The position numbers were made by a program, and so were the translations under genes. Positions 11,729-17,440 of a stretch of DNA of 32,000 nt are shown piece by piece. The notes under the pieces were generated by a model. It saw nothing but the letters and a program-made list of their open reading frames with translations. It was not told the origin of the DNA and searched no databases. The stretch is from Candidatus Saccharimonadota bacterium (lineage in GTDB: Bacteria; Patescibacteriota; Patescibacteriia; 2-12-FULL-60-25), in assembly GCA_022843095.1 (NCBI GenBank), contig JALHOH010000001.1, positions 510,001-542,000 of the forward strand, read 5' to 3'. How positions within the stretch are numbered: the first letter of the stretch is position 1; each line of letters begins with the position of its first letter.

Positions 11729-13171
11729 ATGCGTTCTCGTTTTTTTGTTGGATCTGCGTTTTTTGCCGCCTGTGTGCTTGCACCAACGCTCGCGTTTGCG
11801 GCACCGGACGCCTCGCCACCGCAGTTAGGTGCTATTTCGCCGACCACGGCCACGGTGGCGCGAGAGTTGGAGCTCGCGGCGCCGGTGTCAGATGCCGGAG
11901 GGAATTTGTCGCACTGTATCGTGTTTGTGAATAACGTCTACAAGGGGACGATGTCGATTGGGACGAACCGTGTGTATGGTCCCTATATTTTTTACAAACC
12001 TGACACGTTTACGGTCCGAATCAAGTGTTTTGATACGACGGGAAACGAAGCAGAAGTGTCTGGGGCGATCAATGTCGCGCCGGCGGTTGCGGCTGATACC
12101 TCCCTTCCGACGGTTGGAAAGATCGAACCTGTGAGTACAAAGCCGGGGATTGCGACGACTTTTCGCGTGGCGTATGCGGATAACGTGGGTGTGACCGCCT
12201 GTGAGCTGTACATCAACGGTACTTCGAAAGGGCTGTTTGTGTTAAAAGGATCCTACGCGGATTACACCTACACGTTTCCGAATCCGGGAACCTATGCCAT
12301 GTATGCCGCCTGTCGGGATGCAGCAGGAAACCGGGTGGATGGAGAAGAAGTGCGGGTACTCGTGACGCCTGAAGGGGCGAATCCGGTCTCTGCTACGCGC
12401 TCGTCGTTGTATGTGACTCCGGGGCAAATTTTGTCGGACAGCAAAGATGGGGCAGAGGTGGTGGTATTCGTCCGCGATGAGAACGGTCAGCCTGTGCGGG
12501 GCGTGTTTGTGGCGGTTGAAACCTCACGGCCTGGGGTGGATCAAATCAGTCCCATTCAATCGGTGACAGGGGAGGATGGTGTCGCAAAGTATCGCATTCG
12601 TTCGGCGGTGCCAGGAACGAGCACCGTCCGCGCCTATGCGAACGGGGTGATTTTGCAGGCAACGGCGGTGCTGGACATGAACTTCAAAGGCGAGCGCTCG
12701 GTGCCGCAGGCGGGGAGTTTGATTAAGCTCACCTGTCCGGGCGGCGAAGGGGTGAACCACCCCTGTCGAACCGTGTACTATCTTTCGACGGATAACAAAC
12801 GGCGCGCCTTTCCACACGAAAAGGTGTTCTTTACTTGGTACGGGAACTTTAGCGGGGTGGTCGAGGTGAGCGAAGGGTTTATGGCCGCCATTCCATTGGA
12901 AAAGAACATCGTCTATCGGCCAGGGATCAAGCTCGTCAAATTCTCCACCGTGCCAAAGGTCTACGCCGTGGGGCGCGCGGGTCAGCTCCGGTGGGTCAAA
13001 ACCGAAGAGGCGGCGCGTCAGTTATACGGGGACAAGTGGGCGCAAAATGTGCATGACATCGCCGATGCGTTTTATGGAGACTATTCCTTTGGATCCGATA
13101 TCGCCTCCGGAACGGACTTTAATCCTGCCTACGAAGCGAATATCGCGGTGACGGTGGAAGGAAATTTGTAA
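11729..13171 (+). CDS. Secreted protein: signal peptide, Ig-like repeats, Big_1-like domain, C-terminal unassigned shared module
   Basis: ORF 11489-13171 runs through tRNA-Asp. The ATG at 11729 gives signal peptide MRSRFFVGSAFFAACVLAPTLAFA. Ig-like repeats carry ADNVGVTACELYINGT. The invasin-like segment is SSLYVTPGQILSDSKDGAEVVVFVRDENGQPV. The C-terminal module (12710-13123) is shared with the 15161 and 16031 genes. Confidence 0.8.
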   Translation: MRSRFFVGSAFFAACVLAPTLAFAAPDASPPQLGAISPTTATVARELELAAPVSDAGGNLSHCIVFVNNVYKGTMSIGTNRVYGPYIFYKPDTFTVRIKCFDTTGNEAEVSGAINVAPAVAADTSLPTVGKIEPVSTKPGIATTFRVAYADNVGVTACELYINGTSKGLFVLKGSYADYTYTFPNPGTYAMYAACRDAAGNRVDGEEVRVLVTPEGANPVSATRSSLYVTPGQILSDSKDGAEVVVFVRDENGQPVRGVFVAVETSRPGVDQISPIQSVTGEDGVAKYRIRSAVPGTSTVRAYANGVILQATAVLDMNFKGERSVPQAGSLIKLTCPGGEGVNHPCRTVYYLSTDNKRRAFPHEKVFFTWYGNFSGVVEVSEGFMAAIPLEKNIVYRPGIKLVKFSTVPKVYAVGRAGQLRWVKTEEAARQLYGDKWAQNVHDIADAFYGDYSFGSDIASGTDFNPAYEANIAVTVEGNL

Positions 13172-13176
13172 GTCAC

Positions 13177-13212
13177 CAAAAACCCGCTCAGATTTCCTTG
13201 AGCGGGTTTTTT
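13177..13212. terminator. Bidirectional intrinsic terminator between convergent genes
   Basis: AAAAA-CCCGCTCA-gatttcct-TGAGCGGG-TTTTTT. Confidence 0.8.
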
Positions 13213-13213
13213 G

Positions 13214-15149: not shown

Positions 15150-15160
15150 GGTCTGCGTTT

Positions 15161-15952
15161 TTAGTTCACGACGTTGATCGTACCCTGCATGACCGGGTGG
15201 TTCGAGCACTTGTAGTCGAACGAGCCAACCGTGTCGAATTTGCGGACGTACGTCTTGCCTGGGGCGATGAGCCCGGAGTCAAACGCGTTGCCCGTGACCG
15301 TGTGCGGAACGATATCGGCATTCGTGAAGGTCACCGTCGCGCCCTTCTTCACCGTCATCGTTGCCGGGACGAACCCGTTGTTCATGTTTCCGATCGTCAC
15401 CGTCACGGCCGTTTCATCGAATTGCTTGTCCTGCGTGATGGTGGTCGTGAGCGTCATCACGTTCTGTGGCTGGAAGTCGCTGGCCGTCTGGATTCCCGTC
15501 CCCGTGCGATAGTTCACGAAGAAAGCATCCGGGATGTCATCAATCTGGTTCTTCCAGTTGATGCCGTAGAGCGTCTGCGCCAACTGTTCGGAACCGACGT
15601 GGCGAAGGACGCCTCCCTGATCAACGACGTACACCTTTGGATCCGTCGTGATCTTCACCATCTTGTATCCCGGGCGATACGTGACGTTTCCACCCAGCGG
15701 AATCGTGGCGAGTTGGCCATCCGTGACCTTTTTGACCCCGTCAAAGTTCTTGTACCAGGTAAAATAGGTCTTGTCGTTCGGGAACACATAGCGTTTCCCG
15801 TTTGGAGCGAAGTAGTACACCGTGCTGCCAGAACCCTTAATCAGATCACCTGCGTTAAACGCGACACCTGCGGCATGCGTCGTGGCAAGTGGGGCGGCCA
15901 ACATGCTGACCGTACCAAGCGTCGCCAGTGAGCGAACGAGAAGTTGCTTCAT
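15161..15952 (-). CDS. Secreted fusion protein: shared unassigned module + amicyanin/plastocyanin-like type-1 copper (cupredoxin) domain
   Basis: The ATG at 15952 gives signal peptide MKQLLVRSLATLGTVSMLAAPLATTHA. The shared module is aa 34-162. The C-terminal 83 aa carry MTVKKGATVTFTNADIVPHTVTG...GSFDYKCSNHPVMQGTINVVN, which has the full His / Cys-x2-His-x2-Met ligand set. Confidence 0.85.
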   Translation of the reverse strand: MKQLLVRSLATLGTVSMLAAPLATTHAAGVAFNAGDLIKGSGSTVYYFAPNGKRYVFPNDKTYFTWYKNFDGVKKVTDGQLATIPLGGNVTYRPGYKMVKITTDPKVYVVDQGGVLRHVGSEQLAQTLYGINWKNQIDDIPDAFFVNYRTGTGIQTASDFQPQNVMTLTTTITQDKQFDETAVTVTIGNMNNGFVPATMTVKKGATVTFTNADIVPHTVTGNAFDSGLIAPGKTYVRKFDTVGSFDYKCSNHPVMQGTINVVN

Positions 15953-16030
15953 AAAGAAGTTATTGAATGAGTATCTACAGGGTGCCGATGCGGGATCGGA
16001 CCTGTCAATCATACCTGAAATACGGGCAAA

Positions 16031-17440
16031 TTACTGCACCAGCACCTCATCTGAGGTGAGATCCAGGGTAGCACCCAGCATGTCTTGGATGCGGGCTCGG
16101 AAGGAAATGGTTCCCGCGGCATGTGGTCCGCTGGTCACGACGCAGCTAATCGTGTTCTGGCATTTTTTGAGCAAGACGTCCCCTTGATAGACCTCGATCC
16201 AAGCGATGCCGTTATCATCCGCGGCAGTCACGCGAACATCCAGTGATTCCCCAGGATAGATGCGCGTCTTGTCGAGCAAGATAGAACCGGTTGGTCCGTC
16301 ATGCGTGCCAACGGTAAAGGTTTGAACGGGGGTCGCGTACACATTGCCGCGACCGCCCTCGATGCGGGCGTACGCGGAAAGCGTGGTGCCTGCCGGGGAC
16401 GTGATGTTGTAGTTTACGGTACATCCCAAGGAATCGCTGCAATCAGGATCGGTGTACCGGACCCCGCCGACATACACATCGATGGAGCTGGGTTCAAGAA
16501 GTGGATCGACGTCGATCGAAAAGACCTGTCGGCCATTGGTCCGCACTTGGGCGCGTTCCATGGTAAACGTGATGCCGTCCAGCGGGTCAGAAAGCGAGAA
16601 CGAGCTGGTCGCGGTCGCGGTTTGTCCCGTAATCCAGGATGCTTCGACGCGTGTTGGGAATGTGCGCGTGTCATCATTTTGATCTAACTGAAACGTGCCC
16701 GTGCAGGGGGTATAGGTACACGTCGTGAGCAGGCTGTTTTTGACGAAGATTTTGACCTTCGCGAGAGAGGTTCCAGGTGTGACATCTGCGCGGAGGTACG
16801 CCTTTCCTCCTTTTGCGATAAATGCATCGGATTGCATCCCGATGGTGGCGCGGTAGGCTGATCCGGTGCCTGGAAGCGGGGTTGGCGCAGGGGGCGTGCT
16901 GGTCGCCGCGGGTGGCATCGGCTCTGTGGGTGAAAGGAGTCCTTTATCAACGTTAATCGAGGAGGCGCGCGCCGTTTCGGTTGCCGGCTGAAAATCGCTG
17001 GCAGCTTGGATTGGAGCGCCCATGCGGTAATTGACGAAAAACGCGTCCGGAAGGTCGTCTACGTTTGTATTCCAGGTTGCGCCATACAAGGCGACAGCCA
17101 CGCTCTCGGAAGTGATCCAACGTAGTTCTCCGTTTGCCCCGACCGCGTAGACTTTTGGATCGGTTGTGACTTTCACCAAGCGTACTCCCGGGCGATAGGT
17201 CACATTTCCGCCCAGTGGATACGTGGCAAGTTCCGCGTCGCCAATCGTTTTCACCTGAGAAAAATCGGTATACCAACTGCGATACGTCTGCGCCGTCGGA
17301 AAGACATACCGCTTCCCGTTCGCGCCAAAATAATACACGGCATCACCGGAGGCCTTTAGGAGATCGCCTGCGGTGGCGGCTGAGGCGATGCCGGGGAGAA
17401 GCGCTGCTGTGACGGCGAGCGCGGAAAAGAATCGTCGCAT
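16031..17440 (-). CDS. Secreted protein: shared unassigned module + Pro-rich linker + three Ig-like repeats, each with a Cys pair
   Basis: Signal peptide MRRFFSALAVTAALLPGIASA. The module at aa 24-152 closely resembles the 15161 gene (NGKRYVFP, PLGGNVTYRPG, TTDPKVY, PDAFFVNYR, ASDFQP). Repeats contain CTYTPC, CSDSLGC, CQNTISC. The last repeat has AADDNGIAWIEVYQGD. Confidence 0.85.
   Translation of the reverse strand: MRRFFSALAVTAALLPGIASAATAGDLLKASGDAVYYFGANGKRYVFPTAQTYRSWYTDFSQVKTIGDAELATYPLGGNVTYRPGVRLVKVTTDPKVYAVGANGELRWITSESVAVALYGATWNTNVDDLPDAFFVNYRMGAPIQAASDFQPATETARASSINVDKGLLSPTEPMPPAATSTPPAPTPLPGTGSAYRATIGMQSDAFIAKGGKAYLRADVTPGTSLAKVKIFVKNSLLTTCTYTPCTGTFQLDQNDDTRTFPTRVEASWITGQTATATSSFSLSDPLDGITFTMERAQVRTNGRQVFSIDVDPLLEPSSIDVYVGGVRYTDPDCSDSLGCTVNYNITSPAGTTLSAYARIEGGRGNVYATPVQTFTVGTHDGPTGSILLDKTRIYPGESLDVRVTAADDNGIAWIEVYQGDVLLKKCQNTISCVVTSGPHAAGTISFRARIQDMLGATLDLTSDEVLVQ

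Follow-up and report, generated by a model that had tools for sequence, protein, structure and literature searches.

The 32,000-nucleotide window analysed here (positions 510,001 to 542,000 of contig JALHOH010000001.1, Candidatus Saccharimonadota bacterium) encodes three exported proteins, called A, B and C below, that carry copies of one homologous module beside immunoglobulin (Ig)-like or cupredoxin domains. A sequence-only reading of the same DNA had pointed out this module, left it unassigned, and speculated on an anchoring role. The coordinates of the proteins, the modules, and the adjacent genes are collected in Table 1. Protein A contains Pfam Big_7 at residues 142-189 and Big_1 at residues 225-311 (E 7.7e-16). 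Protein B has Copper-bind at residues 183-261 (E 1.6e-9), a plastocyanin/amicyanin-type cupredoxin whose ligands follow the pattern His...Cys-x2-His-x2-Met, with the type-1 copper set complete (His ... Cys-Ser-Asn-His-Pro-Val-Met). Protein C, identical in sequence to family member P0173, has Big_7 in two stretches (E 6.3e-8). Pfam and NCBIfam name these partner domains in A, B, and C, and leave the module stretch blank. The signal peptides were called by eye alone (MRSR...AFA/A, MKQ...THA/A, and MRR...ASA/A, the slash marking the cleavage site). A longer open reading frame of protein A, 11489-13171, spans tRNA-Asp at 11563-11640; since the tRNA lies inside it, the true start is the ATG at 11729, as the sequence-only reading had taken it.

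Table 1. Module-bearing proteins of the window, their module copies, and adjacent pentose-phosphate genes (position 1 is the first letter of the window)
Feature	Position	Strand	Description
Protein A, 480 aa	11729..13171	+	Open reading frame and translation; signal peptide, Big_7-like and Big_1/Invasin_D3 Ig-like domains, C-terminal module
Module copy A (C-terminal)	12710..13168	+	Repeat 1 ~12710-12910, repeat 2 ~12911-13126, tail 13127-13168
Cys-pair loop CPGGEGVNHPC of copy A	12734..12766	+	Between strands 1 and 2 of repeat 1; read from sequence
Protein B, 263 aa	15161..15952	-	Signal peptide 15872-15952, module, cupredoxin domain 15170-15406
Module copy B	15413..15853	-	Repeat 1 15683-15853, repeat 2 15467-15682, two-helix tail 15413-15466
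Protein C, 469 aa	16031..17440	-	Signal peptide 17378-17440, module, Pro/Thr-rich linker ~16859-16930, Big_7 Ig-like domains
Module copy C	16931..17371	-	Repeat 1 17201-17371, repeat 2 16985-17200, tail 16931-16984
Transketolase C-terminal subunit	13214-14230	-	Pfam Transket_pyr/Transketolase_C
Transketolase N-terminal subunit	14205 to ~15095	-	Pfam Transketolase_N; split genes between the module genes
Ribulose-phosphate 3-epimerase	17447-18091	-	Pfam; directly upstream of protein C
RpiB	18095-18532	-	Pfam; same strand as protein C

The three copies are homologous by pairwise BLASTP. The modules of B and C share 63% identity over 129 amino acids (aa) without a gap (E 5e-62), those of A and B share 46% (E 1e-43), and those of A and C share 45% (E 7e-40). 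Formal pairwise alignment is significant for all pairs, and the module common to the three proteins, as first proposed from the letters, is real. The hidden Markov model (HMM) of the family recognises copy A at E 3.7e-48, copy B at E 1.3e-63, and copy C at E 4.7e-62. No fourth copy occurs in the window, where tblastn of each module against the whole stretch gives next matches at E >= 0.3 only. The shared strings quoted in the sequence-only reading are all present in the translations, including the CPGGEGVNHPC insertion of protein A. Its coordinates for the proteins and the modules are correct, except that the shared part of copy A ends at 13126 and not at 13123 by tblastn. The size of about 130 aa describes the shared core, but the folded and conserved unit reaches 15-20 residues past the DFxP motif. 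Because the conserved, confidently modelled fold continues there as two helices with I-x-x-D-K-G, the module comprises about 145 aa. In P0062, a fusion to a peptidase M23 domain, the usual post-module motif ..INxDKGL.. precedes the module (residues ~70-95), which suggests that the two tail helices may be separable from the rest.

The Cys-pair loop is private to protein A. Its use as a mark of C-terminal copies in general was rejected, as the other C-terminal copies that were examined lack it (11 of 14 readable). A DsbA-like thioredoxin domain occurs at the C-terminus of a 565-aa protein on the minus strand of the window (21571-23268); a disulfide-forming system would bear on this loop.

The module is also internally duplicated, as had been suspected from its two similar halves. 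In hhalign, the profiles of the N-terminal and C-terminal halves align over all 57 columns (E 2.2e-4), with a score of 23.3 against a null of 11.3 +/- 2.9 that is reached by 1 of 200 column shuffles. The order of the structural elements is the same in both halves of the model described below.

The libraries of known sequence families that were searched give the module no assignment. No Pfam family covers it in the three window proteins or in the sets of 101, 97, and 35 family members that were scanned, and the module region of 198 module-bearing members has no meaningful Pfam match. NCBIfam, PHROGs, and PDB sequences (phmmer and profile searches), which are incomplete libraries, contain no match either. 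Hits to AstE_AspA_hybrid, NdhS, and an antibody framework YYC motif were discarded as noise (E > 1e-3). The wall-binding families SLH, CWB2, LysM, and SH3b are not among the Pfam matches of the window proteins or the members, and PF01471 (PG_binding_1) has no match in the three window proteins or the 198 module-bearing members. The EccB profile (T7SS_ESX1_EccB, PF05108) does not match the three window proteins; its one match among 101 members in HMMER, at E 0.025, is not significant, and EccB is not listed at E <= 10 in the PDB profile search. In the incomplete libraries searched, no paper was found that describes the module domain, nor any that joins EccB with Patescibacteria or the candidate phyla radiation (CPR).

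A word-indexed search first found 224 relatives of the module, and the best 120 of them all have 113-226 residues and consist of signal peptide, module, and short tail. An exhaustive HMMER search with a 101-sequence profile, clustered at 50% identity, shows a much larger family of 5,562 clusters at E <= 1e-3, with 2,775 at E <= 1e-30. Every named member belongs to the Patescibacteria, for example Uhrbacteria and Veblenbacteria, and a scan of genome collections found only Patescibacteria relatives with 53-55% identity. Modules of different CPR lineages are 50-60% identical. The module family is large, lacks annotation at the sequence level, and is apparently restricted to the CPR; its fold is a known one, and the role proposed for it is of a familiar kind.

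Most of these proteins place the module at the cell-proximal end. Among 148 new representatives, 131 have a single N-terminal copy, 8 have a copy at each end, and 6 have a C-terminal copy only. The median start of the module is residue 33 (10-90% range 26-43), directly behind the hydrophobic leader, and an N-terminal hydrophobic segment is present in 227 of 243 such module proteins. The fusion partners include binding or structural domains (Big_7, fn3, LVIVD, DUF3048, the purple acid phosphatase N-terminal domain, and YHYH), hydrolases and proteases (GH10, GH114, trypsin-like, Peptidase_C25, and Peptidase_M23, the peptidoglycan hydrolase domain of P0062), a chagasin-type inhibitor, and cupredoxin. 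About 40 of the 148 representatives are proteins of ~1,200 residues without any Pfam domain. Placement at either end or at both, beside unrelated partners, bears out the claim that the module behaves as an independent unit. Stand-alone copies of 175-190 aa are its commonest form. The polar residues R27, K73, D77, E95, D112, D115, N62, and N120 are nearly invariant. The modules have a median isoelectric point (pI) of 5.7 and ~13% aromatic residues. Some stand-alone copies (P0035, P0044; L003 8001-8576) have a Cys behind the hydrophobic leader (..LAGAGCSK..) and a Pro-rich linker before the module. The Cys in P0035 and P0044 hints at lipoprotein tethering, and the standard lipobox pattern matched none of them.

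The AlphaFold2 model of copy B, built from the 101-sequence alignment, has a mean predicted local distance difference test (pLDDT) score of 95.6 and a predicted template modelling score (pTM) of 0.87. It contains two beta-beta-beta-alpha-beta-alpha units of ~60 residues each, followed by two short C-terminal helices, and DSSP of the models likewise gives beta3-alpha-beta-alpha twice. When the two-repeat model is compared with the PDB by Foldseek, all of the top 10 matches are EccB1 or EccB5, the periplasmic component of mycobacterial type VII secretion (best probability 0.98, E 1.5e-3). The template modelling (TM) score of the two-repeat match is only 0.30, because the two units are oriented differently from those of EccB (root-mean-square deviation, rmsd, of the pair ~18 A). 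Repeat 2 modelled alone (pLDDT 84) again finds EccB1 and EccB5 first, with TM 0.61-0.65, rmsd 2.0-2.8 A, and probability 0.97-0.98; the 56-61 aligned columns correspond in length to a single EccB repeat. After EccB, the single repeat matches the cell-wall-binding domain of the LysIME-EF1 endolysin (TM 0.53, probability 0.60). Among the viral structures of BFVD, uncharacterised proteins of actinophages score best (E 1.5e-6, TM 0.75 on the target), and weaker matches are CHAP and amidase phage proteins. The assignment of the modelled module to the EccB-type repeat fold is sound. Since the fold is already known, the earlier label "unassigned" is valid for the sequence families of Pfam-A, NCBIfam, PHROGs, and PDB sequences, and does not extend to the fold.

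The sequence relationship with EccB is less clear. The EccB sequences used in hhalign had their identity confirmed by PDB search. The module VYYFAPNGKRYVFPN aligns with EccB1 repeat 4 MYYIDPQGVRYGVPN in the same register as the fold match, a weak alignment that nevertheless scores above 150 of 150 shuffles. Repeat 1 of the module VYYFAPNGKRYVFPNDKTY aligns with EccB1 repeat 4 MYYIDPQGVRYGVPNAETA at P 0.005. The P values of the module-EccB alignments are 0.005-0.017, with low probability, and the score exceeds all 150 column shuffles for both repeat 1 and the whole module. Repeat 2 against EccB is not significant, as 13 of 150 shuffles reach its score. This mixed signal makes shared ancestry of the module and the EccB repeats plausible, not proven.

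The repeats of EccB1 are each built of a four-stranded sheet and two helices, make contact with one another through these helices, and bear only a weak resemblance to the wall-binding subunit PlyCB (PMC4769845). The module resembles EccB R1-R4 (PF05108; PDB 3X3M, 4KK7, 5CYU, 7NPS) in its ~55-60-residue unit of a four-stranded sheet and two helices. EccB is the best and the sole consistent fold match in the PDB, and both lie outside the cytoplasmic membrane. In contrast, the module has two tandem repeats and a helical tail, whereas EccB has four repeats around a central disulfide-bonded sheet domain. The module follows a cleavable signal peptide and EccB an N-terminal membrane helix. The ESX genes EccC, EccD, and MycP are absent near the module, whose neighbours are pentose-phosphate and housekeeping genes in the window and also in related loci. 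Unlike EccB repeats, the module is a mobile cassette on hundreds of unrelated proteins. The LysIME-EF1 domain has a four-stranded sheet with one helix capping each side and is an obligate tetramer (PMC7098653). By these descriptions, PlyCB of streptococcal phage C1 and enterococcal LysIME-EF1 (6IST) fall into the small fold class of sheet and two helices to which the module belongs, and they target a catalytic or functional partner to a cell wall, as the module is proposed to do. The match is weak, however, and these phage-encoded domains form homo-oligomeric rings of single units aimed at the host wall from within, while the module consists of two fused units. SLH, CWB2, and LysM are similar in being tandem repeats shuffled as cassettes to either terminus of many secreted and S-layer proteins. 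They have a different fold and no sequence match, and the module is so far found in Patescibacteria only.

The strongest functional clue comes from the ~1,200-residue proteins. The body of one of them (residues 190-1212 of P0131) has a high content of Thr, Ser, Ala, and Asp and almost no Cys. A search with this body gave 327 homologues, and the following counts come from the best 120. The module is present on 65, in 64 of them at the N-terminus. A further 14 carry divergent relatives of the module (hhalign probability 95-98%, E 1e-8 to 1e-12), and 3 more have weak collinear matches to the module HMM (E 1e-7 to 1e-3), so that the module or a divergent relative occupies the N-terminus of at least 82 of 120. 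PG_binding_1 (PF01471) occurs on 20, at residues ~47-151 and often behind a coiled coil, and with weaker matches on 6 more the total is at least 26. No protein among the 120 was detected with both the module (by HMM) and PG_binding_1. P0131 and the PG_binding_1 protein P0291 are collinear from residues 192 and 175, respectively, to their C-termini at 39% identity, and the N-terminal cassette alone therefore differs. PG_binding_1 is a three-helix bundle, unrelated to the module in fold and sequence. The two are mutually exclusive at the same N-terminal site on the same ~1,000-residue Patescibacteria body, which makes PG_binding_1 probably a functional equivalent of the module. The module and PG_binding_1 are alternative heads of one protein, as expected if both anchor it to the wall.

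The heads of this family are interchangeable among the module, divergent two-repeat relatives, three single repeats (in P0317, judged by eye and from weak hhalign matches), and a coiled coil with PG_binding_1. A search with the body of protein C for a second example of an anchor swap returned protein C itself only. Kuroda et al. (PMC10936435) list proteins with peptidoglycan-binding domains among the top expressed secreted proteins of three Paceibacteria. A survey of S-layers predicts Patescibacteria S-layer proteins of 1,131-1,274 residues (bioRxiv 10.1101/2024.05.28.596244). The ~1,200-residue family agrees with these in size, but no accession matched.

Taken together, these features suggest that the module is probably a non-covalent cell-wall anchor, new as a domain family but of a functional class already known. 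Its extracellular placement, its cassette behaviour, and its swap with a known wall-binding domain are those of a wall anchor. The supporting observations are the site next to the leader, the cassette behaviour, the exchange with PG_binding_1, the M23 fusion, the fold, and the identity across lineages. The anchoring role that was speculated on earlier gains indirect support from the swap and the EccB-type fold; from these comparisons we infer both the wall binding and the nature of the polymer bound. After Sec export and cleavage of the signal peptide, the two-repeat module would bind a conserved wall component of the producing cell, which would be peptidoglycan or a glycopolymer linked to the wall. 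It would thereby hold the attached domain at the cell surface; in B this is the cupredoxin, and in A and C it is the Ig-like array. The Pro/Thr-rich linker of C may act as a spacer that lets the Ig-like domains extend away from the cell. The chances that peptidoglycan is the specific ligand are judged to be somewhat under even. The low pI and the ~13% aromatic residues, as read from the sequences, suggest glycan recognition rather than recognition of charge.

Several observations weigh against this interpretation or limit it. Basic modules are not the rule (median pI 5.7), which makes an electrostatic attachment to anionic wall polymers an unlikely mechanism. In Foldseek, the two-repeat model and the single repeat reach marginal E-values of 1.5e-3 and 0.07, respectively, and PlyCB (4F87) is not among the top 50 Foldseek matches. 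Wall binding by EccB itself is a conjecture (PMC4769845). A domain swap indicates an equivalent position and probably an equivalent role, not the same ligand. Phages, moreover, give no sign of having adopted the module as the wall-binding domain of a lysin, since it occurs on a single IMG/VR contig and not in an endolysin there.

A phage origin or use of the module was considered and rejected, as tblastn against 50,697 phage genomes found nothing. The IMG/VR contig (L005 = IMGVR_UViG_3300033066_000406) encodes a 501-aa protein with a signal peptide and the module, beside phage-like genes, one of which encodes a 655-aa protein with a C-terminal lytic-transglycosylase-like motif (584-2089 and 4047-6014 on L005). 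This contig may be the host flank of a prophage, or the protein may be a phage-borne surface protein.

Other roles of the module can be envisaged. Cultivated Patescibacteria are episymbionts, and a part in host attachment has been proposed for strongly expressed secreted proteins that contain wall-binding domains (PMC10936435). The module could be the head of an adhesin that recognises the surface of the host or partner cell and brings the fused enzymes and Ig-like stalks to its envelope, where GH10, GH114, proteases, and M23 could act; the fold also occurs in phage proteins aimed at foreign cell walls. This explanation is unlikely. Host-recognition domains usually diverge fast, whereas the module keeps 50-60% identity across distant CPR lineages with necessarily different hosts, which favours a ligand on the cell's own envelope over variable host or partner surfaces. 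The module lies beside the signal peptide at the cell-proximal end, with the linkers and Ig-like domains distal to it, and the body on which it exchanges with PG_binding_1, ~1,000 residues long, resembles a wall-attached coat protein. The exchange with a wall-binding rather than a protein-docking domain also argues against a docking or oligomerisation unit, comparable to dockerin/cohesin or to endolysin rings, that would join cargo to a scaffold, an S-layer lattice, or the stand-alone copies. Such a role is in keeping with the assemblies formed by the closest structures (the helix packing of EccB and the LysIME-EF1 tetramer), with the abundance of stand-alone copies, one of which adjoins fused copies in the related loci L004 and L007, and with the 8 representatives that have a copy at each end. 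However, no conserved partner gene lies beside the stand-alone copies in L003 or L009, and a docking role appears improbable. Oligomerisation would in any case be compatible with wall binding, as the two occur together in PlyCB-type domains.

A role without any anchoring, as a small enzyme, a ligand sensor, or an intramolecular aid to folding or export, is very improbable. The near-invariant polar residues listed above could belong to such a function, and the stand-alone copies show that the module is functional by itself. Neither its sequence nor its fold resembles an enzyme family, though, and the known relatives of the fold are non-catalytic. The partners are too varied for a dedicated folding helper, and the C-terminal copies argue against an export or folding role bound to the N-terminus.

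A wider form of the wall-anchor interpretation is put forward tentatively, and it is rather more doubtful than not. It takes the module as the principal means by which much of the Patescibacteria anchors proteins to the envelope, and as an ancient relative of the EccB repeats. The module would attach the predicted S-layer-type coat protein, a range of enzymes, a blue-copper protein, and Ig-like proteins to a conserved wall polymer, and would be used where other lineages use PG_binding_1. If so, its profile would read the CPR surface proteome off genomes and would point to the wall chemistry of uncultured bacteria.

The Patescibacteria are a very large and mostly uncultured share of bacterial diversity, their biology hinges on surface display, and the majority of the proteins that they secrete carry the annotation "hypothetical". 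With a profile of the module, thousands of surface proteins could be recognised at once (at least 5,562 clusters at 50% identity), including hydrolases, proteases, cupredoxin, and the ~1,200-residue coat-like protein. If wall tethering is correct, the module is a practical marker of the CPR cell surface, and the exchange with PG_binding_1 offers a testable hypothesis for the attachment of an outer layer in these cells. Through the fold, the module is also a free-standing relative of the poorly understood periplasmic repeats of type VII secretion. It should express easily, and the suspected wall binding of the EccB repeats could be probed on it.

The module genes of the window are interleaved with pentose-phosphate genes (Table 1), and the rest of the window is housekeeping, with FtsA, FtsZ, NrdR, an HtrA-like protease, pyruvate kinase, IleRS, RNase Y, IF-2, and three tRNAs. 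Other Patescibacteria loci (L004, L007/L008, and partly L006) have the same succession of genes, IleRS / RpiB - Rpe - module proteins - transketolase N - transketolase C. The syntenic spans are 13214-18532 (-) in the window, 6863-12753 in L004, 6609-13535 in L007, and 2521-6672 in L006. This recurrence shows that the arrangement is inherited and no local accident. In L004, the ortholog of protein B is 64% identical and lies in the same gene order, and the ortholog of protein C is 37% identical over its full length. L004 and L007 have an additional stand-alone module gene of 177 aa beside the fused copies, which the window lacks. Elsewhere, in L003 and L009, the stand-alone copies have unrelated neighbours. 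A scan of 11000-18700 for promoters and terminators gave nothing above chance. A terminator-like hairpin with a T-run is present at 15124-15139 (-), between the stop of protein B and transketolase N, and the number of such sites equals the chance expectation.

Protein B would be a wall-tethered blue-copper protein in a CPR bacterium. Its ortholog in L004 (10091-10879) has Asp for the ligand Cys and Ile for the ligand Met, which makes copper binding there improbable. Further predicted surface-type repeat proteins occur in a run on the plus strand of the window at 13-1257, 1261-2016, 1989-2819, and 2827-4203 (CarboxypepD_reg, bacterial TSP3 repeats, and fn3). They do not carry the module, which is not used by every exported protein of this genome.

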